Both the position numbers and the translations under genes were made by a program. Shown here piece by piece: positions 73 through 18,336 of a stretch of DNA of 32,187 nucleotides. Numbering within the stretch: position 1 is the stretch's first letter; each line of letters starts with the position of its first letter. Source of the stretch: Solirubrobacterales bacterium (lineage in GTDB: Bacteria; Actinomycetota; Thermoleophilia; Solirubrobacterales; 70-9); NCBI GenBank assembly GCA_035634215.1, contig DASQDJ010000257.1, positions 1-32,187 of the forward strand, given 5' to 3'. The notes under the pieces are model-generated. The model searched no databases. It was not told the DNA's origin and saw only the letters and a program-made list of their open reading frames with translations.

Positions 73-1815
73 ATGCGGCTTCTCGGCAGGGCGACCGTTT
101 GCCTCCTCGTCGCGCTCGGGGCCGTGGTTGCCCTGGGCGCCGCCCCGCCGGCGGAGGAGGACGACCCGCGTTGCCGGGGGCGGAGCGCGGAGAACGTCGG
201 CCCCGACGGCGACGACGACCTGCGTGGAACCGACGAGCGCGACGTGATCTGGGCCGGGCTCGGTGATGACCGCGTCCACAGCGCGCTCGGCAACGACCTC
301 GTCTGCGGCGGGCCCGGAACCGACCTGCTGCACGGGGGCCGCGGGAACGACACCGTGGACGGCGGCCCGGGCGACGCGGACCAGGCGATCGGCGACCTCG
401 GCGACGACACGGTGCTCGGCGGCAACGGCGAGTTCGACGAGGCGGCCGGCAGCCTCGGCATCGACCGCGTCAGCGGCGGGCCCGGCAGCTTCGACCTCGT
501 CCACGGCGACTACGGCTACGACCGCATGGACGGCGGGCCGGGCGGCGACGACATCGCCTCCTTCGCCACCGACGTCGCCAGCGCCGGCGGCGCCGGTGTC
601 TGGGTCTCGCTCGCGCGCCACAAAGCGCGCGGTGACGGCCACGACCGCCTCTATCGCTTCGAGGACCTCGAGGGCTCGGCCTTTCGCGACGTGCTGATCG
701 GGGACGGGCGCGCCAACGTGATCGACGGCGGCCCGGGCGACGACCGGCTGCGAGGTGGCGGCGGCGCCGACGAACTGCGCGGAGCGCAGGGAGTGGACGG
801 CTGCCAGGGGGCCAAAGGCCGCAGCTTCTCCTGTGGCAAGGAGCCGGCGCCGAAAGCGTCCGTCTACATAGAGGTCGACCTCACGCACGGCGGCGGCGGT
901 GGGCTCAACATCGTCGGCGGCACCGGCAACGACGCGCTGGTCGTGGCTTTCGACGAAGCCTCGTCCAGCTTCGGCGTCACCGCGAAAGGCGCGATCGCGA
1001 TCGGCCCCGGCTGTGTGCGGGCCAGCGCCACCCAGGTCTCCTGCGTGGCCGACCCCGCCCGCTGGTTCACGGCCGACCTCGGCCCCGGCAACGACAAGCT
1101 GCGTGTCTTCGGCTCGTTGGAGGGCGCCGAGAACGTGCGGATCGCCGGCGGGAAAGGAAACGACACGCTCCGCGGCGGCCCCGAGGACGACCTGATCGAG
1201 TCCGGCCCGGGGGCCGACCGCCTTTACGGGGAAGCCGGCTCCGACGGCCTGGTCGGCGGCCTGCCGGGCCCCACCTTCATCTACGGCGGCGAGGACGGCG
1301 ACCTGATGGCCGCGGGCGGCGGCTGCGCCGGCGGGGCGATCGTCGGCGGCCCCGGGCGAGACGACGCCTCCTTCGCCGAGACCCAGGCCCATCCCGGCCT
1401 TCTGATCATCTCCTTCCCCCAGGACAAAGCCTGGATCGACGTCGTGCGCGGCTGCGACTCAGTCCGCCTCGACGACTCCAACGAGGACATGGAGGGCTCC
1501 TTCGACTGGGACGTCCTGATCGGCGACAGCGGCCCCAACGCGATGCTTGGCCAGCCGGGCAGCGACGAGTACTACGGCAACGGCGGCGAGGACATCATCG
1601 ACGCCCGCGACGGCTTCCGCGACTTCGTCATCCAGTGCGGCGAGGGGCGTTACGTGCGCCCGCCCAAGGCCGGGCCGAAAGCCAAACCCCGCCCGCCGGT
1701 GCTGATCGGCACGCCGGCCGGCCGCGCCCTCATGGATCCGTTCGATCCGGCCCCGCTCCTCTGTGCCGAGGAGAAGCACGGCGAGCCGGTGCCGGGCTTG
1801 AACAACAGCGGCTGA
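73..1815 (+). CDS. Secreted calcium-binding repeat protein (hemolysin/RTX-type GGxGxD repeats)
   Basis: 580-aa ORF with high GC3. Signal-like N-terminus MRLLGRATVCLLVALGAVVALGAAPP. Many tandem Gly/Asp nonapeptide motifs, e.g. GNDLVCGGPGTDLLHGGRGNDTVDGGPGDAD and GGKGNDTLRGGPEDDLIESGPGADRLYGEAGSD. Confidence 0.75.
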   Translation: MRLLGRATVCLLVALGAVVALGAAPPAEEDDPRCRGRSAENVGPDGDDDLRGTDERDVIWAGLGDDRVHSALGNDLVCGGPGTDLLHGGRGNDTVDGGPGDADQAIGDLGDDTVLGGNGEFDEAAGSLGIDRVSGGPGSFDLVHGDYGYDRMDGGPGGDDIASFATDVASAGGAGVWVSLARHKARGDGHDRLYRFEDLEGSAFRDVLIGDGRANVIDGGPGDDRLRGGGGADELRGAQGVDGCQGAKGRSFSCGKEPAPKASVYIEVDLTHGGGGGLNIVGGTGNDALVVAFDEASSSFGVTAKGAIAIGPGCVRASATQVSCVADPARWFTADLGPGNDKLRVFGSLEGAENVRIAGGKGNDTLRGGPEDDLIESGPGADRLYGEAGSDGLVGGLPGPTFIYGGEDGDLMAAGGGCAGGAIVGGPGRDDASFAETQAHPGLLIISFPQDKAWIDVVRGCDSVRLDDSNEDMEGSFDWDVLIGDSGPNAMLGQPGSDEYYGNGGEDIIDARDGFRDFVIQCGEGRYVRPPKAGPKAKPRPPVLIGTPAGRALMDPFDPAPLLCAEEKHGEPVPGLNNSG

Positions 1816-2002
1816 GGCGCCCCCCGGCCGACGCCGGCTCGCCGGACGCTCCACCGTCTCTCGCCGCGCGCAAATTGCGCGTCACGTGCGCGTCGCGATC
1901 TGTCAGCCTCCTCGTCGTGGCCGGCTATGCGCTACACCGATACGACATCAATCCGTCTCGGGCATCTGCCCGTCTCGACCACTGAACGTCCGAGGTTCCC
2001 AA

Positions 2003-3139
2003 GTGCCGAAGAGAGATCCCACCGTGCCGCCCTTCACGATTGACGAGCTGGAACCGGTCAAGTTCCTGCAGAGAGGCGCGATGGGGTTCGTGTGGCGCTA
2101 CCGGCAGTTCTCGCGGGCGGCCGGCGCGGCCCGCCATACGCGAACGCCGCTGGGCTACGTCGCCGTCAAGTGCGTGGAGGTCTCCGAGTACACCCGTTCC
2201 ACCATCCAGCACGCCTACAGCGAGGCAAGGGCCCAGCGCCAGGGCGCTGGCAACGGCAACGTCGTGGCTCTCCACGACGTGCTTGTCGTCGCTGACGACC
2301 TGATCGCCCTCGTGATGGAGGAGGTCGAGGGCGGCAGGACCCTCGCGGACGAAATCGACGCCGCCCGCCGCCGCCGCGGCAAGCTATCGGCCGAGACGAT
2401 CGCTCGCTGGGGCGAGGAAATCTCCAATGGCCTGCAGTCCTTTCATTCGCCGTCGGCACGCGGGAATGCCCTTGCCCACCGCGACATCGCCCCCCAAAAC
2501 GTTCTCCTGACCCGCGAGGGAAGGGTGAAATTGGGCGACATGGGGATCGCCACCGTGGTCGGCGACACGGCGCTCGGCCCGACCGATCCGGCGCCTGTCA
2601 TGGGCCGTGTCATCCGGATGGCGCCCGAGCAGTACTACGGCGACGGCGAATGGGGGACGGCGGTCGATTATTGGGCGCTTGGCCTGATCGTCTTCGAGCT
2701 GGCGACCAGCACGCCGCTGGAGCATTTTTGCGCCGAGCGGGTCCCGAAGATGACGCCGTCTCCCGAGTACTCCCGCGCCATCGGCGACGCCGTCAGGCGG
2801 CAGGCCCGCCAGCACCCGACGATGCACCCGGAGTTGCGCGACCTCGTCACCGAGCTTGTCGTCAACGACCCGGCCAAGCGGGCCGGCGCCGGACGTCTCC
2901 GCGAGGCGCGGACCCGCATCGCTTCCGGTCGGATCCAGGACTTCGGCGATTGCACGACCGTCCCGACGGCAACGCCCGAGCGACAGGAAGAGCCGTCTCG
3001 ATGGCTGGCCGAGGGCGAGATCGACCAACTGCGGGAGAGCCTCCGGTCGTCTCCGGAAACCGGCAGCAGCGGGGCGTTCGAGCGGCTGGTCGGACGGCGG
3101 CGCGCCGAGCGCCACCAAGCCCACGAGGAGGAACCTTGA
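2003..3139 (+). CDS. Hanks-type protein kinase, soluble, atypical catalytic motifs
   Basis: Kinase motifs in order: degenerate G-loop RGAMGFVW, VAVK lysine, catalytic loop HRDIAPQNVLL, DMG in place of DFG (KLGDMGIA), MAPEQ. No TM segment. Start placed at GTG 2003, preceded by GAGG at 1992-1995. The track ORF start at 1886 looks like a spurious extension. Confidence 0.85.
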   Translation: MPKRDPTVPPFTIDELEPVKFLQRGAMGFVWRYRQFSRAAGAARHTRTPLGYVAVKCVEVSEYTRSTIQHAYSEARAQRQGAGNGNVVALHDVLVVADDLIALVMEEVEGGRTLADEIDAARRRRGKLSAETIARWGEEISNGLQSFHSPSARGNALAHRDIAPQNVLLTREGRVKLGDMGIATVVGDTALGPTDPAPVMGRVIRMAPEQYYGDGEWGTAVDYWALGLIVFELATSTPLEHFCAERVPKMTPSPEYSRAIGDAVRRQARQHPTMHPELRDLVTELVVNDPAKRAGAGRLREARTRIASGRIQDFGDCTTVPTATPERQEEPSRWLAEGEIDQLRESLRSSPETGSSGAFERLVGRRRAERHQAHEEEP

Positions 3140-4134
3140 TCCCCAGCGCGCTCAACAGGAGATCCCGGTTCGAGGACGGCCGCCCCACCGGCCCGCAGGG
3201 TTTCCTGAGCCCGGCGGAGACCGGCGGCGTTCACGTGCCGGAGCGGTTCGGAAACCAGGTGGCAAGCCACCTGATCCTGAACATGCTGAACCCGCCCGGA
3301 CTCACGGTGCCGCTGATGCTGGCGGTCCACGGCCCGCCGGGGGAGGGCAAGACCCTGCAGTGCCGCAAGGTGTTCGAGGCGATGGGAGTGGAGGCCGTGG
3401 CTCCCCCGGCCGAGGCCTTCGAGAGCAAGGCGGCCGGCGAGGCCCAGCGGGCGCTACTCGCGACCTACCAGAAGGCAGGCGAAGCGAACTCGGAGATCGA
3501 CGCCGCTTCACGCCGGCGCGGCGCGGCGGGCCCCCCTTATCTCGAGGCGCTGTTCGTCAACGACCTCGATCAGCGCATCGGGCGCAAGGACGGCGCGATC
3601 CAGCAGACGGTCAACACGCAGCTGATCTCGGCGAGCTTGATGGAGCTCGCCGACAACCCCCGGTACGTCGGCGGGCGGCCGGTGCCGCGAGTGCCGATCG
3701 TGATCACCGCGAACGACCTGACCGCGATTCACCCGCCGCTGTACCGCGACGGACGGATGAGGCGGTTTCTCTGGAAGCCGACCTTCGAGGAGCGGGCGCA
3801 GACCCTCGCGGCGATGTACCCCGAGGCCGAACTCGACGCCAAGCGCGCCGCGACCTTGATGCGCCTGGCCGGCTATTCAGATGAAGCTCCGAGCGAGGGC
3901 CCCGGCTTGGCGCCGAGCACCGCCACCTTCGCGGCTATCAAGGTGCTGCTATACGAGCGGGCCGTCCTGGACCTGATGCGGACCTATGGCCCGTCGGGAG
4001 TCCTGGCGGCGATCCGGCTTGGCGAGGTCGACCCCGTCGCCATCCAGCCGAACCTCTCCTACGAGGCGTTGCTCGTGGCGTTGGAGGAACTGCGGGAATC
4101 CCACCTGCTCGAGGACCACCTGCGGGCAGGGTGA
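3136..4134 (+). CDS. AAA+ ATPase, Rubisco-activase-like clade
   Basis: Walker A GPPGEGKT (3331-3354) and Walker B LFVNDLD. Extended similarity to Rubisco activase as I recall it (KTLQCRKVFEAMGV; QTVNTQLISASLMELADNP; RVPIVITANDLTAIHPPLYRDGRMRRFLWKPTFEER). TTG start at 3136 overlaps the kinase TGA (TTGA) and follows a strong SD, GAGGAGG, at 3125-3131. The upstream part of track ORF 2650..4134 is off-frame overlap with the kinase. Confidence 0.85.
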   Translation: MIPSALNRRSRFEDGRPTGPQGFLSPAETGGVHVPERFGNQVASHLILNMLNPPGLTVPLMLAVHGPPGEGKTLQCRKVFEAMGVEAVAPPAEAFESKAAGEAQRALLATYQKAGEANSEIDAASRRRGAAGPPYLEALFVNDLDQRIGRKDGAIQQTVNTQLISASLMELADNPRYVGGRPVPRVPIVITANDLTAIHPPLYRDGRMRRFLWKPTFEERAQTLAAMYPEAELDAKRAATLMRLAGYSDEAPSEGPGLAPSTATFAAIKVLLYERAVLDLMRTYGPSGVLAAIRLGEVDPVAIQPNLSYEALLVALEELRESHLLEDHLRAG

Positions 4135-4145
4135 AGGAGAGAACC

Positions 4146-4718
4146 GTGGCCGAGACCTACACCTACACCGAGACGTACACCTACACCCGCTCGGAGCTGA
4201 TCACCGACCTCATCGTCGGCGCCTTCGAGCACGTCCTTCGCCAGCTCGGCTCCACCTCGACGTTGCCGGCGGACGGCATCGAAGAGACGCTGAAGCTCGG
4301 CTGGCTGCGGCAGGTCTCGGTGGTGGCGAGCAGCAAGCGCGACGACGGCTCCTCGGACTGGCACATCGCCCTCACGGCGGAGATCGACGCGGAGACGCAC
4401 GTCGCCCGCCTCGCGGTCGCGGCCGAACGCACCATCGCCTTGCCGAAGGAGCGCGCCGACGACATCGCCGACCAACTCGCCTATTACGGCCAAATGTTCG
4501 TCAAAGTCGTCAAGCGCCACCGCCGCCCGAACTGGCGAATCGGCTGGTGGATCACGCCCACGAGCGCCGGCGCCGCGAACCGGCCTCGCTTCAACGAGCT
4601 GACCGGCACCCACCGGGCGACGACGCACCGGGCCAACCCTCAGAAACTCGGTCGCTTCAGTCCCGACGAGATCGACGAGGCCAGCTTCGGAATCGAGGTG
4701 TACGACGATGAGGTCTGA
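4146..4718 (+). CDS. Hypothetical protein, possible bacterial HORMA-domain (Cap7-like) protein
   Basis: High-GC3 ORF. SD AAGGAGA (4135-4141) precedes GTG 4146; an alternative GTG at 4131 overlaps the ATPase stop as GTGA. The N-terminus VAETYTYTETYTYTRSELITDLIVGAFEHVL resembles the (T/S)Y(S/T)YT...TY.T strand plus helix at the start of bacterial HORMA proteins as I remember them. The functional call is tentative. Confidence 0.6.
   Translation: MAETYTYTETYTYTRSELITDLIVGAFEHVLRQLGSTSTLPADGIEETLKLGWLRQVSVVASSKRDDGSSDWHIALTAEIDAETHVARLAVAAERTIALPKERADDIADQLAYYGQMFVKVVKRHRRPNWRIGWWITPTSAGAANRPRFNELTGTHRATTHRANPQKLGRFSPDEIDEASFGIEVYDDEV
4152..4187 (+). repeat. 18-bp in-frame tandem duplication (2 copies, 17/18 identical) encoding (ETYTYT)x2
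   Basis: GAGACCTACACCTACACC (4152-4169) followed directly by GAGACGTACACCTACACC (4170-4187). Confidence 0.95.
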
Positions 4719-5361
4719 GCGCGCTGCAGATCGATTCGAGTCGGGAGCGGTCGAGCCGACGCCGACCGTCAACCTGATCCTGCCCGACGGCTCCACCTGC
4801 TCGATTCCACTCGAGGAGCGCATCACTTCGTTCGGGCGGCATCCGCACAGCACCGTGGTGATCGACGATCCCACTGTGTCCTCGACCCATTTGACGTTGG
4901 AGAGGGTCGGCGGCCAGATCAAGGTGCGTGACGAGTCCTCGTACGGCACCCGGCTGCAGGGCGCCCTCCTCGTGTCGGAACGCTCGATCAAGGTCCACCA
5001 CGGGCAATCGATCACCTTTGGCGGCGACGACCAGGGTCGCTACCAGCTGGTGGTCCGCGATCCGTCCGAGCACGTGCCGACGGAGCCCCCTCGCCATCGA
5101 CCGGACCGCATTCGCCTTCCGGCTCCCCTGCAACGCATCGCGGAGGCGCTCGTGTACCAGTACGTCGAGCGAGTCGGGCCGGCGCCCCGGGCGGCGAGCG
5201 TCGAGGAGATCGCGGAGCGGCTGGAGGTCCATCCCGCGACGATCCGGCGGGGCCTTCACGACCTCGAGTCGATCCTCAAGATCGATGCCGATCTACGCGG
5301 CCCCAAGCGCCAGCAGGCCCTCGCCGAGCGCATCCTGCTGACCGACGCCCACCGATCGTAG
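4708..5361 (+). CDS. FHA-domain protein with C-terminal helix-turn-helix (putative phosphothreonine-dependent DNA-binding regulator)
   Basis: FHA signature: FGR...VVIDDPTVSSTHLTLERVGGQIKVRDESSYGTRLQG. C-terminal wHTH-like ASVEEIAERLEVHPATIRRGLHDLESIL. ATG 4708 overlaps the preceding gene by 11 nt. Confidence 0.85.
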   Translation: MRSERAADRFESGAVEPTPTVNLILPDGSTCSIPLEERITSFGRHPHSTVVIDDPTVSSTHLTLERVGGQIKVRDESSYGTRLQGALLVSERSIKVHHGQSITFGGDDQGRYQLVVRDPSEHVPTEPPRHRPDRIRLPAPLQRIAEALVYQYVERVGPAPRAASVEEIAERLEVHPATIRRGLHDLESILKIDADLRGPKRQQALAERILLTDAHRS

Positions 5362-5380
5362 GCCGGGTAGGCTTGGCGGC

Positions 5381-5584
5381 GTGAGCCGTCCCCCCAGCGA
5401 CGACGAGGCGGTGGCGATCGCCGCGGCGATCCAGCGCTTCCTCGCCGAGACCTCGGCGCCGGCGGGTGGCGAGCCGCGCCAGCGGACCAGTCCCTGGCAC
5501 CGGGCCGCCCTGCTGGAGGGGGTCGGCAAGCGCGTGACGCTCGAGGACCTGGAAGGCGAAGGAGGAGGCAGATGGCCGTCGTGA
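5381..5584 (+). CDS. Small hypothetical protein (67 aa)
   Basis: Very high GC3 across the ORF. GTG start. Overlaps the next gene by 13 nt. The DDEAVAIAAAIQRFLAE...W motif is vaguely like small OadG/AccE-type subunits, but this is not supported beyond that. Confidence 0.5.
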   Translation: MSRPPSDDEAVAIAAAIQRFLAETSAPAGGEPRQRTSPWHRAALLEGVGKRVTLEDLEGEGGGRWPS

Positions 5585-5781
5585 AGATCATCGAGCTGGT
5601 CGGCAGCTCCAAGACGTCGACCGACGACGCGGCGCGGCAGGCGCTCGCGCAGGCGCAGGGCACCCTGCGCAACATTCGCGCCGTCGACATCGTCTCGACC
5701 GGGATCCGCGGCGAGAACCTCGACGAGTACCGCGCACATGTGCGGGTCGCCTTCCTGGTCGAGGGCACGGAGGTCGACTGA
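5572..5781 (+). CDS. Dodecin-family flavin-binding protein
   Basis: 69 aa. KIIELVGSSKTSTDDAARQALAQAQGTLRNIRAVDIV...EYRAHVRVAF matches the dodecin pattern. Strong SD GAAGGAGGAGG upstream. Confidence 0.85.
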   Translation: MAVVKIIELVGSSKTSTDDAARQALAQAQGTLRNIRAVDIVSTGIRGENLDEYRAHVRVAFLVEGTEVD

Positions 5782-6176
5782 TGGCCGACGAGGCGACCGG
5801 CGGCGAGACGAAGGAAGTGACGCGCGAGGAGGCGCGGCGGTTGGTCGAGGAAGGCGCGCAGCTGGTCGACGTCCGGGCCGACCACGAGTGGGACGCCGGC
5901 CGCATCCCCGGCGCCAGGCACGTGCCGCTCGCCGAGCTGAACGAGCGCACCGGGGAGATCGCCCAGGACCGGCCGGTCGTCCTCTACTGCCGGGGCGGGA
6001 CCCGCTCGACGATGGCGGCGGAGGCCCTCGCGGCCGCGGGCTACGACGCCGCGAAGCTGACGGACGGCATCGTCGGCTGGGAGGAGGAGGGCCTGCCACT
6101 CGAGCCGGAGGGTGGCTACGCGGCCGAGTCTGGCCAGGCGGCGGCGGTCCTCGAGGCACGGAAGAAGCCCTCGTAG
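5781..6176 (+). CDS. Rhodanese-domain sulfurtransferase
   Basis: VDVRADHEWDAGRIPGARHVPL plus active-site loop YCRGGTRS. The ATG overlaps the dodecin stop (TGATG). Confidence 0.9.
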   Translation: MADEATGGETKEVTREEARRLVEEGAQLVDVRADHEWDAGRIPGARHVPLAELNERTGEIAQDRPVVLYCRGGTRSTMAAEALAAAGYDAAKLTDGIVGWEEEGLPLEPEGGYAAESGQAAAVLEARKKPS

Positions 6177-6251
6177 CCGGGTCTCCGCCCGCGCTCGTCT
6201 CGTCGCTCGAAACTTAAATACCCAAATCCCTGTCAGGTTTTGCTATTTTCT

Positions 6252-6269
6252 CTAGCTCCATGGAGCTAG
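6252..6269. promoter_or_regulatory. Perfect 18-bp palindrome centred on the sulfite reductase start codon
   Basis: CTAGCTCCA|TGGAGCTAG; the ATG at 6260-6262 sits at the dyad. The upstream region is unusually AT-rich and lacks an SD. Confidence 0.4.
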
Positions 6270-8101
6270 TGGTCGACCAAGGCAAGCAGCAGCGGGGGAA
6301 GGGCCGCGCCGGCACCCTCGACAACCCGGAGACCTACGACAACGTCCCGGGCCACATCATCCCGATCATCGAGCGCGAGTTCGACGACTTCGACAACGAA
6401 GCCGGGAAGTTCCTCGCCGGGGCGATGGCCGAAGACCAGTTCATCGGCTTCCGCCTCAAACAGGGCGTGTACGGGCAGCGCCAGCCCGACGTCCAGATGC
6501 TGCGGATCAAGCTTCCGTTCGGCGGCGTCTCACCGGAGCAGATGGAGGCCTTCGCCAGCGTCGTAGAGCAGTACGCGCCGCTCGTCAAAGGCCACATCAC
6601 GACCCGGCAGAACATCCAGATCCACCACGTGCCGCTGCCCGACGCTGCCAAGGCGATCCGCGAGCTCTCCGACGCCGGCCTCTCCTCGCGCGAGGGCTGC
6701 GGCAACACGATCCGCAACGTCACCGGCGACCCGTGGGCGGGCGTCGCCGCCGACGAGGTCTTCGACCCGACGCCCTACGCCGGCGCCTACGTCCGCTACT
6801 TCGTGCGGCACCCGACCACGCAGCTGATGCCGCGCAAGATCAAGACTTCATTCACCGGCTCCGACGCCGACCGGGCGATCAGCGGCATCCACGACATCGC
6901 CTTCCTCGCCCGCGAGCGCGACGGCGTGCGCGGCTTCGAGATCCGGGTCGGCGGCGGCACCTCGATCATGGCCCGCATCGCCCCGACCCTCTACGAGTTC
7001 GTCGAGGCTGACAACGGCGACTACCTCAAGGTCGCCGAGGCGGCGCTGCGCATCTTCGACCGCCAGGAGTGGCTGCGCGTCAACCGGGCCCGCGCCCGGA
7101 TCAAGGTGCTGATCGACAAGATCGGCATCGACGCCTTCCGCGAGCAGGTCGAGGAGGAGCTGCGGGGCGAGTGGGTCGCCGAGCGCGACTTCAGCGCCGA
7201 GCTGGTCGAGCGCCTCCGCTACGACCACGACGAGGAGGCCAACGCGCCGGCGCCGCCGGTCGCGCCCGCCTCGCCCAACGGGGAGCGCTCCGAGTTCGAG
7301 CGCTTCCTCGAGGCCAACGTGCAGGCGCAGCGCCAGGAGGGCTTCTCGACGGTCGAGGTCAAGGTCGAGCGCGGCGACCTGACGCCGGAGCAGTTCCGCG
7401 GCCTCGCCGCGATCATGCGCGAGTACACGGGTGGCTACGCCCGCAGCACCGTGCAGCAGAACCTCGTCCTGCGCTGGGTGCGTAACGAGGCGCTCTTCGA
7501 CGTCTGGCAGCGGCTCGGCGAGCTCGGCCTCGACGAGGCCGGGCCGCGCGAGGTCTCAGACGTCGTCAGCTGCCCCGGCACCGACAGCTGCAAACTCGGC
7601 ATCACCAGCTCGATGGGCCTCAACCGGGCGATCAAGGAGCGGGTCCAGTCGATGGAGATCTCCGACGAGCTGACCAAGCGCATCCACATCAAGATGAGCG
7701 GCTGCCCGAACGGCTGCTCGCAGCACCACATCGCCAACATCGGCTTCTACGGCGCCTCGCTGAAAGTCGGCGGCCGCCAGATGCCCGCCTACATCCCGCA
7801 CGTCGGCGGCAACTACGAGGGCGGCGAGGTGATCTTCGGCAAGCGGCTGAAATCGCGGCTGCCGGCCAAACGCGTCCCCGAGGCGGTCGAGCGCTGGCTG
7901 CGGCTCTACGAGGCCGAGCGCGCCGACGGCGAGGAGTTCAACGCCTTCGCCGAGCGGACCGGCGCCGAGACCTTCGAAGCCGCGATCAAGGACCTGACCC
8001 TGCCGGCCGAGTTCAGCCTCGAGACGATGCAGCAGTTCATCGACTGGCAACGCTCCAGCCCCTACAAGGTCGAGCGCGGCGAGGGGGAGTGCGCGATCTG
8101 A
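6260..8101 (+). CDS. sir: Ferredoxin-dependent sulfite reductase (nitrite/sulfite reductase family, siroheme/4Fe-4S)
   Basis: 613 aa. Cluster-ligand motifs SCPGTDSCKLGIT and SGCPNGCSQHHIANIGFYG. NiR/SiR ferredoxin-like repeats. Located in the sulfate-assimilation operon. Confidence 0.9.
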   Translation: MELVVDQGKQQRGKGRAGTLDNPETYDNVPGHIIPIIEREFDDFDNEAGKFLAGAMAEDQFIGFRLKQGVYGQRQPDVQMLRIKLPFGGVSPEQMEAFASVVEQYAPLVKGHITTRQNIQIHHVPLPDAAKAIRELSDAGLSSREGCGNTIRNVTGDPWAGVAADEVFDPTPYAGAYVRYFVRHPTTQLMPRKIKTSFTGSDADRAISGIHDIAFLARERDGVRGFEIRVGGGTSIMARIAPTLYEFVEADNGDYLKVAEAALRIFDRQEWLRVNRARARIKVLIDKIGIDAFREQVEEELRGEWVAERDFSAELVERLRYDHDEEANAPAPPVAPASPNGERSEFERFLEANVQAQRQEGFSTVEVKVERGDLTPEQFRGLAAIMREYTGGYARSTVQQNLVLRWVRNEALFDVWQRLGELGLDEAGPREVSDVVSCPGTDSCKLGITSSMGLNRAIKERVQSMEISDELTKRIHIKMSGCPNGCSQHHIANIGFYGASLKVGGRQMPAYIPHVGGNYEGGEVIFGKRLKSRLPAKRVPEAVERWLRLYEAERADGEEFNAFAERTGAETFEAAIKDLTLPAEFSLETMQQFIDWQRSSPYKVERGEGECAI

Positions 8102-8796
8102 TGAACCCCGTCGCCACCCCCACAGAGATCGACGCCGAGGCGATTGCCGCCGAGCTGGAGGAGAAGAGCGCCGGCGAGGCGATCGAGTGGATGTTCGAGA
8201 CCTTCGGCGAGCGCCACTACATCGCCTGCTCGTTCCAGAAGACGAGCTCGGTGACCGCGCACCTGGCCGCGCGGATCAATCCCGAGGCCCGCTTCTTCTA
8301 TCTGGATACCGACGTTCTCTTCCCGGAGACCTACGAGACGCGCGACCGGCTCGCCGAGCATCTCGGCGTCGAGTTCGACCGCTTCCACAACCTGACGCTG
8401 GCCGAGCAGGCCGAGCGGCATGGCGACGAGCTGTGGAAGCGCGACCCCGACGCCTGCTGCGGGCTGCGCAAGGTCGAGCCGATGCGGAGGGCGCTTTCTT
8501 CCGTAGACTGCTGGCTCGCCGGCGTCCGCCGCGAGGACTCAGCCAGCCGCGCCAAGACCCCCAAGTTCGCCTGGGACAAGCGGTTCGAGTTGTGGAAGCT
8601 GAACCCGATCGCGGACTGGACCGAGCGCGACGTCTGGAACTACATCCGTGAGCACCACCTCCCGTACAACCCGCTCCACGACCACGGCTACCCGTCGATC
8701 GGCTGCACGCACTGCACCAAGCCGGTCGTCGCGGGCGGCTCGGCGCGCGACGGCCGCTGGGTCGGCCTCGCCAAGACGGAGTGCGGGCTCAACTAG
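8101..8796 (+). CDS. cysH: Adenosine 5'-phosphosulfate (APS) reductase, Fe-S type
   Basis: PAPS/APS reductase fold (IACSFQKTSSV, C-terminal ECGLN). Carries the CC (DACCGLRKV) and CxxC (GCTHCT) cysteine pairs typical of the Fe-S APS-reductase subclass. ATG 8101 overlaps the sir stop (TGATG); an alternative GTG lies at 8089. Confidence 0.9.
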   Translation: MNPVATPTEIDAEAIAAELEEKSAGEAIEWMFETFGERHYIACSFQKTSSVTAHLAARINPEARFFYLDTDVLFPETYETRDRLAEHLGVEFDRFHNLTLAEQAERHGDELWKRDPDACCGLRKVEPMRRALSSVDCWLAGVRREDSASRAKTPKFAWDKRFELWKLNPIADWTERDVWNYIREHHLPYNPLHDHGYPSIGCTHCTKPVVAGGSARDGRWVGLAKTECGLN

Positions 8797-8878
8797 CGCA
8801 GTCGCTCCGGCTCGCTTCCAGTAGAAGACCTAGTCCCCCGACGACCACGTCCCCCCGAACGATTGGTGAAACGACTTC

Positions 8879-9955
8879 ATGACCGAGACCATGGCTGAGC
8901 TGTCCCTGACCCTCTCTGAGCGCCACACCGCCGACTTCGAGATGATCGGCAACGGCGGCTTCGCGCCGCTGACCGGCTTCCAGGGCGCCGCCGACTGGGA
9001 GCGCGTCTGTGCCGAGATGCGGACCGCCGACGGCGATTACTGGCCGATCCCGATCACCCTGGCCACCGACCTCGATTGCTCGGTCGGCGACGTTGTCGCC
9101 CTCTCCAGCGACGAAGGCAAGCCGCTGGGACGGATCACGGTCGAGGAGATCTTCGAGCGTGACGTCAAGCGCGAGGCCGAGCTGGTCTACCGCACGACCG
9201 ACGAGGCGCACCCGGGCGTGGCGGCGATCTACGAGGAGGGGGCGCGCTGCATCGCCGGCCCGGTCGAGGTCGACGCGCTGCCCGACCACGAAGAGGCGTT
9301 CATGAAGCGCTACCTGACCGCCGAGGAGTCGCGCAAGGCGTTCGCCGAGCGCGGCTGGAAGCGCGTGGTCGCCTTCCAGACCCGCAACCCGATCCACCGC
9401 GCCCACGAGTACCTCACCAAGGCGGCGCTGGAGATCACCGACGGCCTCTTCATCCACCCGCTGATCGGCAAGACCAAGGCCGGCGACATCCCGGCCGACG
9501 TGCGGATGCGCTGCTACGAGGTCCTGATGGAGAAGTACTACCCCCAGGACCGGGTCATCCTCGGCGTCTTCCCCTCGAAGATGCACTACGCCGGCCCGCG
9601 GGAGGCGATCCTGCACGCGATCGCGCGGCGCAACTACGGCGCCACCCACTTCATCGTCGGACGTGACCATGCCGGTGTCGGCGACTACTACGGCACCTAC
9701 GACGCGCAGCACATCTTCGACGAGGTGGACACGAAGGAGCTCGGCATCGAGCCGCTCTTCTTCGAGCACAGCTTCTGGTGCAACGAGTGCGAGGGAATGG
9801 CGTCGGGCAAGACCTGCCCGCACGGCAACGAGGCGCACGTGTTCCTGAGCGGCACCAAGGTGCGCGAGATGCTCGGCAACGGCGAAAGGCCGCCGCAGGA
9901 GTTCTCGCGCAACGAGGTCGCCGACATCCTGATCGACGCTTACAAGGAGGACTGA
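8879..9955 (+). CDS. sat: Sulfate adenylyltransferase (ATP sulfurylase, homo-oligomeric type)
   Basis: QTRNPIHRAHEYL and GRDHAGVG motifs; about 358 aa. Confidence 0.9.
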   Translation: MTETMAELSLTLSERHTADFEMIGNGGFAPLTGFQGAADWERVCAEMRTADGDYWPIPITLATDLDCSVGDVVALSSDEGKPLGRITVEEIFERDVKREAELVYRTTDEAHPGVAAIYEEGARCIAGPVEVDALPDHEEAFMKRYLTAEESRKAFAERGWKRVVAFQTRNPIHRAHEYLTKAALEITDGLFIHPLIGKTKAGDIPADVRMRCYEVLMEKYYPQDRVILGVFPSKMHYAGPREAILHAIARRNYGATHFIVGRDHAGVGDYYGTYDAQHIFDEVDTKELGIEPLFFEHSFWCNECEGMASGKTCPHGNEAHVFLSGTKVREMLGNGERPPQEFSRNEVADILIDAYKED

Positions 9956-10720: not shown

Positions 10721-10787
10721 TCTTGACGCGCCCCAGGGGTGGGGCGTGGCGCTCACCAAGCGTCTACTTCAAGAGAAGGGAACCACG

Positions 10788-11441
10788 ATGAGCATGAAGC
10801 TCAAGGTCCTCGGTCTGGGGATCCTTGCCGTCATGGCAACGAGTGCGTTCACGGTGATGAACGCCTCGGCCCAAGATCAGCCAAACAGTCATTTCACGTC
10901 AGAGGCTGAACACGTAATCATCAAAGGGAAAGACGCTTTCGGCAGCGGACATTCCTTGCAATTCAAAGGATCGGGCGATCCGATCAGCTGCACAGACGCG
11001 ACGTATCACGGCACAATAGTCGAGTCGGACAAAACAACTCAGGCTATTCAGGTCAGGCCCCACTACACACAATGCGCCACAACGAGCGGCACCTGGGGCT
11101 CAGTAACCGTCCATGTCCCGACCGGCTGTGGGACAAACGTGTATGAATTCACAAGCGGTAATCCTGGCACAATTCACGTTAACTGCCAGATTACGATTAC
11201 ACATCCGAACTGCACCATCCGGGTGCCTGTTCAGACACGAAACGGCGCGACCTATACACAGGTCACCGAACAGGGCAAACACGCCATTACACTCCATGTA
11301 AACGCTCCTGAAATTACAACCCACTACGAGTCTGGCATCTGTGTCTTCTTGGGCACAAGCCACACCTCGACCATGACGGGCAACGCCACAGTCTGGGGTG
11401 AGAACCAAGCGGGAGGCCGAGTCGGCATCACAGCGACATAA
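10788..11441 (+). CDS. Small secreted six-cysteine protein, paralog 1 (unknown function)
   Basis: ATG 10788 follows GAGAAGGGAA. Signal peptide MSMKLKVLGLGILAVMATSAFTVMNASA. Six Cys conserved with the 18337..19005 paralog. Markedly lower GC and A/T-ending codons. Confidence 0.8.
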   Translation: MSMKLKVLGLGILAVMATSAFTVMNASAQDQPNSHFTSEAEHVIIKGKDAFGSGHSLQFKGSGDPISCTDATYHGTIVESDKTTQAIQVRPHYTQCATTSGTWGSVTVHVPTGCGTNVYEFTSGNPGTIHVNCQITITHPNCTIRVPVQTRNGATYTQVTEQGKHAITLHVNAPEITTHYESGICVFLGTSHTSTMTGNATVWGENQAGGRVGITAT

Positions 11442-11459
11442 GGGCATCTCTGAATGACG

Positions 11460-11495
11460 GCCGTCGGGCCCGGTCCTCAGATCGGGCCCGACGGC
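11460..11495 (+). terminator. Hairpin (perfect 12-bp stem, 12-nt loop) after paralog 1
   Basis: GCCGTCGGGCCC ggtcctcagatc GGGCCCGACGGC. Confidence 0.55.
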
Positions 11496-11497
11496 TA

Positions 11498-11526
11498 TTG
11501 ACGTTGAGAACATCAGGTGATACCGT
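11498..11526 (+). promoter_or_regulatory. Candidate promoter for the two giant secreted-protein genes
   Basis: TTGACG-N17-TACCGT immediately after the hairpin, about 70 nt upstream of ATG 11595. Confidence 0.3.
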
Positions 11527-11594
11527 GTCCATACTTTGGGGGTACCGATTGCGGCCGCTTCGCAGCGTCGCCGCTTTTAGGGAGGAAAAGGACG

Positions 11595-14500
11595 ATGGGA
11601 ACTTCCGCCAAGAGGGCGCTCCGGATCGGAACGATGGCGCTGGCGGTCGTCACGCTAGTCATCGCTCTGAGCAGCCCAGCCTCGGCGGCTGCGCCCGACC
11701 TTCTTTTGCGCGTCCCACAGGAGGACGGGCTACCAAAATTTGGCGGCGGTGCGGGGCAGACGAACAACCCCCGCGGTGTCGCTGGAAACCCGGCCACTGG
11801 TCACTTCTACGTCTCCGAGTTAGAAAACGCGCGCGTCAGCGAGTACACCGCCTGGGGTCTTTTCGTGCGGGCCTGGGGATGGAACGTAGCCCCCGACGGA
11901 ACTCCGGGCGACACGTCAAGCGACGAATTGGAGACGTGCGGCCCGCCTCAGCCGGAAGCAGAACCCTCCCCGGATCTTTGTCAAGCGGGGAATGCAGGCC
12001 CTGGTAAGGGCCAGCTCGACTGGCCGATGGGCCTCGCGGTCGACCCCAGCGGCGACGTCTACGTGTTTGAGTTCTTCAACCGACGCGTCCAGAAATTCAG
12101 CTCGTCGGGGGAGTTCCTGCTGATGTTCGGCGCCGACGTCAACCAGACCAAAGTTGGCGAAGGGGCCTCCGGAGCGCAACGGAACGTCTGCACGGACGCG
12201 TCCGGCGACACCTGTCAGGCGGGCACTTCCGGTGAAGGCACAAGTCAACTTGACGCGACCCTCGGCGATTACATCGACTACTCCCCGGCCGAAGGCGGAA
12301 CGATCCTGGTCGGAGACAAAGGCGGCATCCAGGTCTTCGATACCAACGGCATCCACAAAAAAACCATCCTCTTCTCGGGCGCGCTGTCTGCGCTGGCCGG
12401 CAAACAGGTCAATGGCCTCGACGTCGACAAAGACGCGAATATCTACATCACTCTCGACGCCACCGAAGACGTCTACAAGCTCTCACCGACTGGGGTGCCG
12501 CTCGACCCGGGCAAACCGGGCAGCTCGAGCTTCAAAGCGGAGGAGCCGCTTGGAGTCGCGGTGGATGTGGAGGGCAGCGTCTACGCGATTGACGATCCGG
12601 AAGGCTTCGTCGGAGCGCCCCCTTATGTCCTCAAATACAGCGCGGCGGGTGCGAAGCTGGTGCCGACAGCGGCAGAAGAAGGAGCCGGCACGCCGTTTCC
12701 GGAAAGGTCGTCGGGTGCGCGCCTTACCGCAATCGCGACGAACATCTGCTCGGGCAGCGAGGCACCCGGCAACCTCTACGTCGGCTTCTTCAACGCCGGC
12801 TCCCCGCCTCACGTCAGCTACGTCGACGCATACGGCACCGCTCCGATTGGCTGCGAATTGCCGCCGCCGAACCCGCCGGTAGTGGGCGAGCAGTTCGCGA
12901 CCTTCGTTGGGAGCGAAGAGGCGACGCTGCGGGCGCTGATCAACCCTTGGTTCTTCCCCGACACCACCTACTACGTCGAATATGGGGTCGCCCCGTGCTC
13001 GACGGGCGGTTGCACCAATAAAGCGCCCGTTCCGCCGGCACTCCTGACCCAGAGATCCGTCAAAGCCTTCGTCTCAACGGCCGACGTGATCCTTGAGGGC
13101 CTTGCACCCGGCACGACTTACCACTACCGCTTCGTCGCGGACAGCTCCGGTGGCGAGCAGGTGCACGGCATCGATCCGGACGGAGAGGGCCCGCTGAAAG
13201 CGGATCTTGAAAACGGCATGGAAGGAACCTTCAGGACCCCCGTCGCGGGTGAGCCGCCGGAACCATGCTCCAACGACCCCTTCCGCATCGGACCTGGCGC
13301 CGACCTTCCCGATTGCCGCGCCTACGAGATGGTCTCGCCCCTCGACAAAGGCAACGCCGACGTGGCACTTGGGATCGGCAGGAATAACGTCCGCTACCGA
13401 CTCTTCGAAGTGAACAAGAGCGCTTTGTCGGGCGAGCGGTTCACCTTTACCGCAGCCACGGCTTTCGGTGACGCGGAGAGCGCCGCATTCTCCTCTCAGT
13501 ACCTCGCGGAGCGAGACGGGGACGGCTGGACGAGCAAAGGAATTTCGCCGCCGCGCACCGAACCGGGGCTGCCGGTGGACCTGGTCTTTGGCGCCGAATT
13601 CCATGGCTTCAGCGAGGATCTGTGTCGCGGCTGGCTGCGCCTTTACTCGGTTGCGCCCCTGACGGTCGACGCGATCGAAAAGTTCCCCAACCTCTACAGG
13701 CGCGACAACTGTCTTCCATCGCCCAATTACACCGCGCTGACGACAAAAGAACCACCGAACCGATCGGCCGAGGAATACGACAGGCTGTTAATCGACGGCT
13801 TCTCGGCGGACGGAAGCCACGCAATTTTCACCGCCCCCGACACGCTCCATCCCGAAGCACCTACGCCGAAAGCCGGCGAGGAGGTTCTTTACGAGCATGT
13901 GCCGGGCGACCTGCGCTTCGTCTGCTACCTGCCGACTGGGGAGCCGAGCCCGGAAGCCTGCTCGGCGGGGACCAAGGCGGTGCCGGGCTCCTCGAACTTT
14001 TCGCCGTTGAAGAACGCGATCTCCGCTGACGGCTCGCGGATCTTCTGGACCGCCTATACGACCAATGAGATCAACGATAGCCAGCCCGGCCGCATCTTCG
14101 TGCGGATCGATGGACAGGAAACCGTCGCCATTTCGGATGCGGTGCCGTCTTCGGGCCGTGCTTTCTTCTGGACCGCTGCGGACGACGGCTCAAAGGCAAT
14201 TTTCTCGTTCGTCTCGGGTGATCGGAGCGGCGAGCTCTACGAGTTCGACGTCGACACCGAAACGCCGACGCTGATCGCCGAGGGGGTCGAGGGCCCGATG
14301 GGGGCGAGCGAGGACGCCTCGCGCCTCTACTTCGCCTCGACTGAGGACTTGGACGATGATGGCCCGGGCAGCGCCGGCGCCCACAACCTCTACTTCTACG
14401 AAGCTAATCCGGGTGGGGGGCCCGGGACCTATCAGTTCGTCATGGCGCTGGCAGATGCCGATGTCGGGTCGATGAATCCGAGCGCCCAGGGCGGGGCGAC

Positions 14501-15341
14501 GAGGCCGGTGGATCTTTTGCCGCCTATGCGCGCCGCTCGCGTCACCCCAGACGGGCTGCATGTCACCTTCATGTCGAAGGCGAGCCCGGCGCCAAGTGGA
14601 TACGACAACCGCGACATCGACAGCGGTCAAGCCGCCGCCGAGGTCTACCGATACGACGCCGCGGCCGGCGATCTTCATTGCGTCTCGTGCAACCCGACCG
14701 GGGCGAGGCCGGCCGCGGTTCTCGCTGAAGCCGTCATGACCGCCGCCCGCATCCAGGGCTGGGAAGCAAATCAACATGCTCCCAGGGTGATCACTGACGA
14801 CGGCTCGCGCGTCTTCTTCGAAAGCCACGAGGCGCTCGTCCCATCAGACTCCAACGGCACCTGGGACGTCTATCAGTGGGAGGAGCCCGGCAAAGGCACC
14901 TGCACCACCGCCACCCCCACCTACACCGACACGACCGGCGGCTGCGTGGACCTCCTCTCCTCCGGCCAGAGCGCCGCGCGCTCCCTGTTCCTGGACGCCG
15001 ACCCCTCCGGCAACAACGTCTTCCTCGCCACCCAGAGCTCCCTGGTCGGTCAGGACTACGGCCTGAACGACGTCTACGTCGCCCGCGTCGGCGGCGGCTT
15101 CCCCGAGCCCGTGCCGCCGGGCGATTGCGAAGGGGCCGCCTGCCAGGGCCCGGCGCCGGCGCCCCCGGTGAGGACGCCCGCCAGCGAGTCCTTCCAGGGC
15201 CCCGGCAACGAGACCGATAAACCGAAAGCCCGCAGATGCCCGAAAGGCAAGCGCCGCGTCACCCGCAAAGGCAAAGCGCGCTGCGTGAAGAAGCGCAAAG
15301 CCAGCAAACAGCGCAGCGGCCAGAGAGGGGGCCGGCGATGA
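11595..15341 (+). CDS. Large secreted multidomain protein: NHL-repeat beta-propeller, FN3-like domain, PD40/TolB-like repeats, basic Cys-containing C-terminal tail
   Basis: ATG 11595 follows GGGAGGAAAAGG. Signal peptide MGTSAKRALRIGTMALAVVTLVIALSSPASAAAP. NHL blades, e.g. GQLDWPMGLAVDPSGDVYVFEFFNRRVQKFSSSGEFLLMFG. FN3-like ATLRALINPWFFPDTTYYVEYG...LAPGTTYHYRFVA. PD40-like ISADGSRIFWTAY, TPDGLHVTFMS, TDDGSRVFFES...WDVYQW. Tail RRCPKGKRRVTRKGKARCVKKRKASKQRSGQRGGRR. Confidence 0.8.
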   Translation: MGTSAKRALRIGTMALAVVTLVIALSSPASAAAPDLLLRVPQEDGLPKFGGGAGQTNNPRGVAGNPATGHFYVSELENARVSEYTAWGLFVRAWGWNVAPDGTPGDTSSDELETCGPPQPEAEPSPDLCQAGNAGPGKGQLDWPMGLAVDPSGDVYVFEFFNRRVQKFSSSGEFLLMFGADVNQTKVGEGASGAQRNVCTDASGDTCQAGTSGEGTSQLDATLGDYIDYSPAEGGTILVGDKGGIQVFDTNGIHKKTILFSGALSALAGKQVNGLDVDKDANIYITLDATEDVYKLSPTGVPLDPGKPGSSSFKAEEPLGVAVDVEGSVYAIDDPEGFVGAPPYVLKYSAAGAKLVPTAAEEGAGTPFPERSSGARLTAIATNICSGSEAPGNLYVGFFNAGSPPHVSYVDAYGTAPIGCELPPPNPPVVGEQFATFVGSEEATLRALINPWFFPDTTYYVEYGVAPCSTGGCTNKAPVPPALLTQRSVKAFVSTADVILEGLAPGTTYHYRFVADSSGGEQVHGIDPDGEGPLKADLENGMEGTFRTPVAGEPPEPCSNDPFRIGPGADLPDCRAYEMVSPLDKGNADVALGIGRNNVRYRLFEVNKSALSGERFTFTAATAFGDAESAAFSSQYLAERDGDGWTSKGISPPRTEPGLPVDLVFGAEFHGFSEDLCRGWLRLYSVAPLTVDAIEKFPNLYRRDNCLPSPNYTALTTKEPPNRSAEEYDRLLIDGFSADGSHAIFTAPDTLHPEAPTPKAGEEVLYEHVPGDLRFVCYLPTGEPSPEACSAGTKAVPGSSNFSPLKNAISADGSRIFWTAYTTNEINDSQPGRIFVRIDGQETVAISDAVPSSGRAFFWTAADDGSKAIFSFVSGDRSGELYEFDVDTETPTLIAEGVEGPMGASEDASRLYFASTEDLDDDGPGSAGAHNLYFYEANPGGGPGTYQFVMALADADVGSMNPSAQGGATRPVDLLPPMRAARVTPDGLHVTFMSKASPAPSGYDNRDIDSGQAAAEVYRYDAAAGDLHCVSCNPTGARPAAVLAEAVMTAARIQGWEANQHAPRVITDDGSRVFFESHEALVPSDSNGTWDVYQWEEPGKGTCTTATPTYTDTTGGCVDLLSSGQSAARSLFLDADPSGNNVFLATQSSLVGQDYGLNDVYVARVGGGFPEPVPPGDCEGAACQGPAPAPPVRTPASESFQGPGNETDKPKARRCPKGKRRVTRKGKARCVKKRKASKQRSGQRGGRR

Positions 15342-18175: not shown

Positions 18176-18183
18176 CCGAAGGC

Positions 18184-18209
18184 CCGCGCGCGCCGTTCTG
18201 CGCGCGCGG
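18184..18209 (+). terminator. GC-only hairpin (10-bp stem, 6-nt loop) after the second giant gene
   Basis: CCGCGCGCGC cgttct GCGCGCGCGG, 9 nt after the stop. Confidence 0.55.
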
Positions 18210-18272
18210 CCGATCCTCCCACCTGCTTTGCGGGCCTTTCCGGAGCCTTAACCGAGAACCAAGCGTTTTCGC

Positions 18273-18301
18273 TTGAACACAGAGATCCTCGGGCGTATCT
18301 C
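18273..18301 (+). promoter_or_regulatory. Candidate promoter for the second small secreted paralog
   Basis: TTGAAC-N17-TATCTC. RBS GGGAAGGGGAG lies before ATG 18337. Confidence 0.3.
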
Positions 18302-18336
18302 CCCCGCACCCGCGCAAACTAGGGAAGGGGAGCAAG

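Follow-up and report, generated by a model that had tools for sequence, protein, structure and literature searches.

Does the HORMA/AAA+ switch, a central signalling device in eukaryotes, also operate in bacteria beyond CBASS, the systems of antiphage signalling that are based on cyclic oligonucleotides, to which the bacterial cases have so far been confined and in which it always comes with Trip13 and a nucleotide cyclase? This question is raised by four adjacent genes in a 32,187-nt stretch of DNA (contig DASQDJ010000257.1, assembly GCA_035634215.1, forward strand; hereafter the window), which in order encode a kinase, an AAA+ ATPase, a HORMA-fold protein (gene 3) and a protein joining an FHA domain to a helix-turn-helix (HTH). 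A first-pass annotation, made from the letters of the window, had read the products as a soluble Hanks-type kinase, an AAA+ protein resembling Rubisco activase (Rca) and not Trip13, a HORMA-like protein of about 190 residues and an FHA-HTH fusion, with no CD-NTase, nuclease, phospholipase or transmembrane effector in or beside the cassette. Profile searches, structure prediction and comparison with related loci bear these assignments out. We propose that the four parts work together as a switch, forming an autoregulated signalling operon in which a HORMA/AAA+ module gates the kinase and the FHA-HTH protein reads out its activity, a reading whose chances we judge to be about even. Beyond the first-pass annotation, the analysis brought to light a three-gene family of relatives, an N-terminal threading handle, a kinase tail motif and an upstream palindrome.

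The four plus-strand genes lie end to end (Table 1), and their overlaps, already pointed out in the first-pass annotation, can be read directly from the sequence. The TTG start codon of the AAA+ gene shares two bases with the TGA that ends the kinase gene (TTGA, 3136-3139), the junction between the AAA+ gene and gene 3 comprises GTGA at 4131-4134 and AAGGAGA at 4134-4140 followed by GTG 4146, and the FHA-HTH gene starts at ATG 4708, overlapping by 11 nt (4708-4718) with gene 3, which ends at the stop codon 4716-4718. GTG 4146 is the better start of gene 3, since 7/7 homologues are 190 residues long and align from there. For the kinase, GTG 2003 is favoured, as the homologues begin with MPKRDP and support a protein of 378 residues, compared with 371 in the deposited annotation, which starts seven codons further downstream.

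The order kinase, AAA+, HORMA-like and FHA-HTH is kept in all five longer contigs with close homologues (L001, L002, L004, L005 and L006), whose proteins are 58-77% identical to those of the window, and the 11-nt overlap of the HORMA-like and FHA genes is retained in 5/5 full close loci. Two truncated loci (L003 and L019) keep the order in the portion present, and the order kinase, AAA+, HORMA-like, FHA is also found in the distant locus L007, where the AAA+ protein is 39% identical to that of the window and the HORMA-like protein has 238 residues. The expectation that the four genes co-occur in other genomes thus holds. At least four different flanking contexts are seen among the order-keeping loci: the window, L001 and L005 are flanked upstream by an RTX-repeat gene and downstream by genes for dodecin, rhodanese and sulfate assimilation, and L002, L004 and L006 lie in contexts unrelated to these flanks. 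The four-gene operon is rare yet conserved. No CD-NTase/SMODS was detected in the four proteins (Pfam, NCBIfam, PADLOC) or in the flanking genes (Pfam scan and reading), and an effector of the nuclease, phospholipase or membrane type is likewise absent from the cassette of the window and from the genes directly beside it (Pfam scans and reading). Neither a HORMA protein with an Rca-like AAA+ nor one with a kinase and an FHA protein is described in Pfam, NCBIfam, PADLOC or the literature searched, in agreement with the earlier view of the arrangement as a candidate new switch. The G+C content at third codon positions (GC3) is 0.85-0.92 in the cassette and 0.92-0.96 in neighbouring genes, a difference too small to argue for horizontal transfer from composition, and we rejected that argument.

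Table 1 Features of the four-gene cassette and its upstream region, in window coordinates.
Feature	Position	Strand	Basis or proposed role
Palindrome GCGCAAATTGCGC, arms GCGCAA/TTGCGC around one base	1868..1880	.	Candidate FHA-HTH operator; overlaps promoter region
Hexamer CAGCCT, possible -10-like element (tentative)	1904..1909	+	Upstream alignment
Soluble Hanks-type Ser/Thr kinase, 378 residues	2003..3139	+	Pkinase profile; regulated-enzyme slot
Kinase C-terminal tail motif SGAFERLVGRRRAERH	3068..3115	+	Candidate docking/closure motif for HORMA
AAA+ ATPase, green-type Rubisco-activase family, 332 residues	3136..4134	+	PDB sequence search; putative HORMA remodeller
HORMA-fold protein (gene 3), 190 residues, orphan by sequence	4146..4718	+	AlphaFold2 model and Foldseek
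N-terminal alternating Thr tail TYTYTETYTYTR	4155..4190	+	Conservation; candidate handle for AAA+ pore
FHA-HTH protein, 217 residues	4708..5361	+	FHA profile; putative phospho-dependent transcription factor
FHA domain, about residues 40-105	4825-5022	+	Pfam
Helix-turn-helix, about residues 163-187	5194-5268	+	Pfam, below cut-off

The identification of gene 3 comes from structure prediction. The protein has no Pfam match at E 1 or better and no NCBIfam match, a search through 5.8 billion proteins turned up seven homologues, and exhaustive HMMER profile searching against 1.84 billion cluster representatives returned one true cluster, the family's own. An AlphaFold2 (AF2) model built from eight sequences reached a mean predicted local distance difference test score (pLDDT) of 91.4 and a predicted TM-score (pTM) of 0.85, and its top 50 Foldseek matches in the PDB are all HORMA proteins, drawn from five subfamilies. 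These include HTP-1/2 and HIM-3 of C. elegans, REV7, Mad2, Atg13/Atg101, HORMAD1 and, among bacterial proteins, the CBASS HORMA2 of P. aeruginosa, with a best E-value of 2.5e-5 (HTP-2), probabilities of 0.66-1.00, TM-scores of about 0.5 and root-mean-square deviations of 5-7 Å. By these matches the model conforms to the HORMA core fold, i.e. three helices on a beta-sheet and the C-terminal beta-hairpin region. The sole PADLOC family matched by the gene 3 family is CBASS HORMA, over the first 43 residues only and in 4/11 members (best E 3.8e-4). For P0025, a distant HORMA-like protein from a locus of the three-gene form described below, a low-confidence AF2 model (pLDDT 58.6) gave REV7 and Mad2 as its first 20 matches, which we take as weak support, and CheX/CheC-like folds among the lower ones. 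The gene 3 model provides good support for a predicted HORMA fold, an assignment that rests on fold.

The second gene encodes an AAA+ protein (Pfam PF00004, E 1e-12) whose best PDB sequence matches are the Nostoc Rca-like protein (6z1d, E 1.4e-38) and the activases of tobacco (3t15, 1.6e-33) and Arabidopsis (4w5w, 2e-32). Below these come generic AAA+ proteins of the classic clade, none of them better than E 1e-8, and no TRIP13/Pch2 chain is found at E 0.01 or better. The Walker A (GPPGEGKT) and Walker B (NDLD) motifs, pore loop 1 (ESKAAGE), pore loop 2 (IQQTVNTQ) and the arginine fingers (RDGRMRR) all align with Rca, and the protein ends after the lid without an extra domain. From these alignments the ATPase is clearly assigned to the Rubisco-activase family and is not Trip13-like. 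A role as true Rubisco activase was considered and rejected, the RbcL signature motif being absent from the window and from all 26 loci. The protein matches no PADLOC defence model, and no matches to it were found in phage and plasmid collections.

A possible substrate for this ATPase is suggested by the N-terminus of gene 3. In close homologues T4, T6, T10, T12, T14 and R15 are invariant, and an alternating T-x-T pattern precedes helix A in 15/15 HORMA-like N-termini examined, with tails such as TKTTTRTATLTR, TRTRTTTKTRTRTETRT and TFTHTISSTITKTR in other members. Residues 1-5 of the gene 3 model have a pLDDT below 50 and the first ten average 59. In the cryo-electron microscopy structure of Nostoc Rca on Rubisco, the N-terminal tail of RbcL (SYAQTKTQTK) sits in the pore, with Ala4, Thr6, Thr8 and Thr10 filling one pocket after another between pore loops 1 and 2 (10.1101/2020.05.16.099382). 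Pch2 of CBASS holds the HORMA N-terminus through the alternating residues Ser3, Ser5, Thr7 and Ala9, a grip that inactivates the CD-NTase:HORMA complex (10.1101/694695). The tail of gene 3 resembles both, and by analogy the Rca-like AAA+ may thread the HORMA N-terminal tail, performing the job of Trip13 with an ATPase of another family.

This is in agreement with the arrangement of the wider family. When genome and metagenome collections were scanned with the AAA+ alignment, 15 more loci came to light and, using our own profiles, the AAA+ gene is directly followed by a HORMA-like gene in 22 loci and the window, that is, in every locus with testable downstream DNA. Because this pairing is constant whatever the third partner, the AAA+ and HORMA-like proteins likely act on each other. 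Most of the distant loci (L009-L018 and L020-L026; e.g. L012 5435-7364, L018 746-2820 and L021 2002-3979) have a three-gene form consisting of a small protein, the Rca-like AAA+ and the HORMA-like protein, without kinase or FHA genes. The small upstream protein, of about 170-220 residues, has a hydrophobic N-terminal helix, a Pro-rich linker and a conserved C-terminal helix, and matches nothing in Pfam or PADLOC. The three-gene form is commoner than the kinase form and spans several phyla, with members in assemblies of Solirubrobacteraceae, Microtetraspora, Micromonospora, Acidobacteriia and Dehalococcoidia. Judged from these alignments and gene orders, the conserved core is the Rca-like AAA+ with the HORMA-like protein, and either the small protein or the kinase can fill the slot upstream of it.

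The kinase that occupies this slot in the window matches Pkinase at E 6e-28 (98 bits against a cut-off of 31.7) and carries the catalytic motifs VAVK (53-56), HRDIAPQN (159-166), DMG (179-181) and APE (207-209). In PADLOC it comes closest to two defence kinases, mad6 (E 9e-38) and PD-T4-6, matches that reflect generic kinase-domain similarity. Beyond the catalytic domain, a linker of 40-60 residues is variable in sequence and is followed by a G-x-F-E-R-L-V-G motif that is invariant in six close kinases and then by a basic run; the distant L007 kinase has the related AFFDYIENG at its C-terminal end. As a short, hydrophobic and conserved motif in a flexible tail, like the closure motifs of HORMA proteins, this element is probably the best candidate for HORMA docking.

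The fourth protein has an FHA domain (E 1.5e-11, 45 bits against a cut-off of 20.7), in which G43, R44, S58 and H61, the residues for phosphothreonine binding, do not vary, preserving the Gly-Arg and Ser-x-x-His motifs. Many HTH families match residues 157-195, all below their Pfam cut-offs. The nearest NCBIfam model is EspM, at 32.9 bits against a cut-off of 550 and over the FHA part only, so that the protein is not a member, and it matches no PADLOC defence model.

A possible target for this protein lies upstream of the kinase gene. The upstream regions of six loci are otherwise unalignable, and the palindrome GCGCRAATTGCGC is their only well-conserved block. The exact 13-mer occurs once each in the window, L001, L002, L004, L005 and L006 and is absent from the other 21 loci, and L019 has a copy with one mismatch about 110 nt upstream of its kinase, so that the palindrome is found upstream in 7/7 kinase-type loci that include upstream DNA. 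The hexamer that follows (CAGACT, CACACT or CACTGT in other loci) stands at a fixed distance of 23 nt after the palindrome, as seen in the alignment and in L019. A scan for consensus sigma-70 promoters found none, and the promoter/terminator scan gave nothing useful. From its distribution, the palindrome is evidently a cis element specific to the cassette, and it is most simply explained as an operator bound by the FHA-HTH protein, in which case the operon would regulate itself.

Based on the gene order, the domain identities, the HORMA fold, the Rca-family membership and the conserved motifs described above, we propose the following mechanism, in which the binding partners and the direction of each step are inferred. 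The HORMA-fold protein would act as sensor or adaptor, binding a short peptide in its closed state and keeping the Hanks-type kinase in an active complex. The peptide would most likely be the motif in the C-terminal tail of the kinase or, alternatively, a foreign or stress-exposed peptide, and activation would parallel that in CBASS, where the closed HORMA protein activates the CD-NTase. The AAA+ hexamer would pull the flexible Thr-x-Thr tail of the HORMA protein through its pore, unfolding or opening the HORMA domain and dismantling the complex. In this way it would set the threshold and reset the switch, the same job that Trip13/Pch2 performs on other HORMA proteins. While active, the kinase would generate phosphothreonine sites, whether in its own chain, in the HORMA protein or in the regulator. 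The FHA domain would read these sites, and the occupancy of the upstream palindrome, and perhaps of other sites, by the regulator would change.

Several observations weigh against this reading. Searching the PDB sequences with a profile of the wider gene 3 family recovers no HORMA chain, a match to a Pfam HORMA family is likewise absent, and the HORMA assignment is drawn from the fold, at TM-scores of only about 0.5. The functionally critical Tyr116 in pore loop 2 of Rca is Gln in the kinase-type subfamily; the position is Tyr or Phe in several relatives. The Asn of the FHA NGT motif is replaced by Tyr. A role as phospho-acceptor cannot be the primary one of the Thr tail, because the kinase-less three-gene relatives carry the tail too. 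The cassette encodes no phosphatase or effector gene that would provide an output beyond autoregulation, and the family is very rare, with about nine kinase-type loci found.

The genomic surroundings of the cassette and its relatives vary. In the window the neighbours are housekeeping genes (sulfate assimilation, dodecin, acyl-CoA carboxylase). Downstream, the interval between the cassette and a conserved open reading frame (ORF) of 64-67 residues next to dodecin is a variable site: it is without insertion in the window (5362-5580), and holds a TetR-type gene of 435 residues in L005 (5387-7050) and two TetR-type genes, a DSBA gene and a PIN/ribbon-helix-helix (RHH) toxin-antitoxin pair in L001 (11221-14840). 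In L004 (299-4164) a patatin-like phospholipase gene lies directly upstream of the candidate operator and the kinase, preceded by a PIN-domain toxin pair; this is the only locus with a patatin gene next to the cassette. The L007 cassette (828-9111) directly follows three further FHA proteins and a fused FtsW/RodA-family/transpeptidase protein, a context that recalls the actinobacterial growth cluster fhaA-fhaB-pstP-rodA-pbpA-pknA-pknB, and its own FHA protein is without an HTH and ends in a hydrophobic, basic segment. Among the three-gene relatives, L014 (663-11060) adjoins a KAP NTPase, a TatD DNase, a Holliday-junction-type endonuclease and IS110, and L015 (949-14531) adjoins a TrwC relaxase, ParA and a phage-type integrase. 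Further along the window, positions 10746-19005 have a lower G+C content (0.60-0.66 at 10-15 kb and 18-19 kb, compared with about 0.70) and interrupt the synteny with L001, where a PHP-domain gene directly follows the adenosine phosphosulfate (APS) kinase gene. This region includes an ORF of 1274 residues with weak NHL and beta-propeller repeats (11517-15341) and one of 979 residues without Pfam match and with strongly negative GC skew (15236-18175).

Such surroundings bear on what the cassette is for. The same switch could serve an anti-phage or abortive-infection system, in which the HORMA protein would sense a phage peptide and the kinase would itself be the effector, phosphorylating many host or phage proteins and so halting the infection, as is thought for Stk2 and PD-T4-6; the AAA+ would keep the system off, and the FHA-HTH protein would only control expression, like CapW or CapH/CapP in CBASS. 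Such a system would share its mechanism with the signalling operon and differ from it in role and in kinase targets. The only established bacterial HORMA/AAA+ modules are indeed immune (10.1101/694695), the distribution is patchy and rare with differing flanks at 58-68% identity, and the site occupied by the cassette is a variable one, where other loci hold TetR genes and a PIN/RHH toxin-antitoxin pair. The patatin gene and PIN toxin just upstream in L004 and the mobile-element or nuclease neighbours of L014 and L015 point in the same direction, as do the kinase's best PADLOC matches. However, these matches reflect similarity shared by kinase domains in general, neither the AAA+ nor the FHA protein matches a defence model, and the window offers a housekeeping neighbourhood without effector. 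The lack of AAA+ matches in the phage and plasmid collections and a cassette GC3 only slightly under that of its neighbours also count against an immune role, and the context of L007, with its FHA proteins and fused FtsW/RodA-family/transpeptidase protein, looks like growth control. We regard immunity as a serious contender, albeit on balance an unlikely one.

That context would also suit an ordinary actinobacterial kinase/FHA pair of the PknH-EmbR kind with a housekeeping task in envelope growth or stress, in which the AAA+ and HORMA-like proteins form a static adaptor or chaperone pair and the HORMA-like protein is locked in one state, like Atg101 or p31comet, instead of switching. Kinases with FHA-linked DNA-binding regulators are known in actinobacteria, EspM is the nearest NCBIfam model of the fourth protein, three loci share a chromosomal, syntenic location, and some HORMA proteins, e.g. 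HORMA1, do not switch (10.1101/694695). Against this, the strict AAA+/HORMA pairing and the threading-type tail in all members are hard to explain without remodelling, and the rarity and patchiness of the family are far too great for core housekeeping, which makes a static pair distinctly unlikely. A more radical possibility is that gene 3 is not a HORMA protein at all but an unrelated substrate or cofactor of the AAA+, and that the AF2 model, built from eight close sequences, converged by chance on a similar alpha/beta sandwich. The modest TM-scores and large deviations, the lack of significant sequence matches to HORMA families in Pfam or PDB, and the low confidence of the P0025 model with its CheX/CheC-like lower matches would fit such an explanation. 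It would, however, have to account for 50/50 top matches to HORMA proteins from five subfamilies, at the probabilities given above, for a model with a pLDDT of 91, for REV7 and Mad2 as the first 20 matches of an independent if low-confidence model, for HORMA as the sole profile matched in the defence library, and for the pairing with an N-terminus-threading AAA+ that is expected of a HORMA protein. We consider this very unlikely, and retain the HORMA/AAA+-gated signalling operon as the preferred reading.

The relationship between the cassette ATPase and Rubisco activase deserves separate consideration. Across a 199-column alignment of the AAA+ core, identity between true Rubisco activases and the HORMA-associated ATPases is 37-49%, compared with 32-50% among the subgroups of the latter. 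A neighbour-joining tree with an FtsH AAA domain as its root places Rca among the three-gene branch, and a clade of all HORMA-associated ATPases minus Rca was recovered in 2/300 bootstrap replicates; a split of the kinase-type ATPases together with L018, L014 and L009 from the rest has 82% support. The tree is crude, being built by a distance method from a short alignment with a distant root. One possibility that it suggests is the recruitment of green-type Rubisco activase from this family of HORMA remodellers. In its fullest form this picture would comprise a second, independent bacterial HORMA/AAA+ lineage, the recruitment of Rca from a remodeller with the RbcL tail mimicking a HORMA handle, and one branch that gates a kinase read by an FHA factor, where phosphorylation of the Thr tail might also prevent threading and thereby keep the switch on; as a whole we hold it to be doubtful, with a modest chance of being correct. 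The operon connects Rubisco activase with a family that is not photosynthetic and whose partner is defined, so that the origin of the activase and of its N-terminal threading mechanism becomes testable.

If the same HORMA device is used here with an ATPase of a different family and wired to phosphorylation and transcription, the HORMA switch would be more general and more modular in bacteria than the CBASS examples suggest. The cassette would also offer a simple system of four proteins in which HORMA control of a kinase can be studied.

Among known systems, type III CBASS is the closest in layout, with a HORMA protein beside an AAA+ and a signalling enzyme in one operon and a HORMA N-terminus with alternating small residues like the tail gripped by Pch2. 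The logic is likely shared as well, in that closed HORMA activates the enzyme and the AAA+ takes the complex apart (10.1101/694695). However, the CD-NTase, the Trip13/Pch2-family AAA+ (Cap6) and the effector of CBASS are all three absent here; their places are taken by an Rca-family AAA+, a Hanks kinase and an FHA-HTH output without a nucleotide second messenger, and the HORMA protein, represented in CBASS by Cap7/Cap8, is undetected by Pfam and weakly detected by the PADLOC CBASS HORMA model. CapK/CapS, a kinase/repressor pair on immune operons, was considered as a further relative and found to be unrelated, consisting of an anti-sigma-type kinase with a STAS substrate.

Green-type Rubisco activase shares about 40-49% identity over the roughly 200-residue AAA+ core, as well as pore loop 1 (ES..AGE/D), pore loop 2 (QxT[VI]N[TR]Q), Walker B (NDLD) and the arginine fingers (RxGRM). 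It threads an N-terminal tail of alternating Thr residues, and the HORMA-like proteins of the cassette family carry a tail of the same kind. Unlike Rubisco activase, the cassette ATPase has neither the SSUL domain nor the plant-type N-domain, no Rubisco or Calvin-Benson-Bassham gene occurs in the window or in any related locus, the obligate neighbour and presumed partner is a HORMA protein, and Gln replaces Tyr116 in the kinase-type subfamily.

The mycobacterial PknH-EmbR and EspM systems resemble the output half of the cassette, coupling a Hanks kinase to a protein with an FHA domain and a DNA-binding part. In PknH-EmbR the FHA domain reads phosphothreonine made by the kinase and thereby controls transcription, and EmbR combines a SARP/BTAD DNA-binding part with a C-terminal FHA domain. 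Both systems are without HORMA or AAA+ proteins, and the FHA-HTH protein of the window is not EspM. The meiotic axis of eukaryotes consists of Hop1/HORMAD, Pch2/TRIP13, Mec1/Tel1 and Mek1, the last being an FHA reader of the phosphorylated HORMA-bound complex, and thus assembles the same four kinds of player, i.e. HORMA protein, AAA+ remodeller, kinase and FHA reader. The identities differ, as the kinase of the cassette is of Hanks type and not a phosphatidylinositol 3-kinase-related kinase, its FHA protein is a putative transcription factor and not a kinase, and its AAA+ is not Trip13. If the proposed mechanism is correct, the cassette would represent a prokaryotic HORMA/AAA+/kinase/FHA circuit with the logic of the Hop1/Pch2/Mec1/Mek1 axis, an analogy that is probably one of logic and not of descent.

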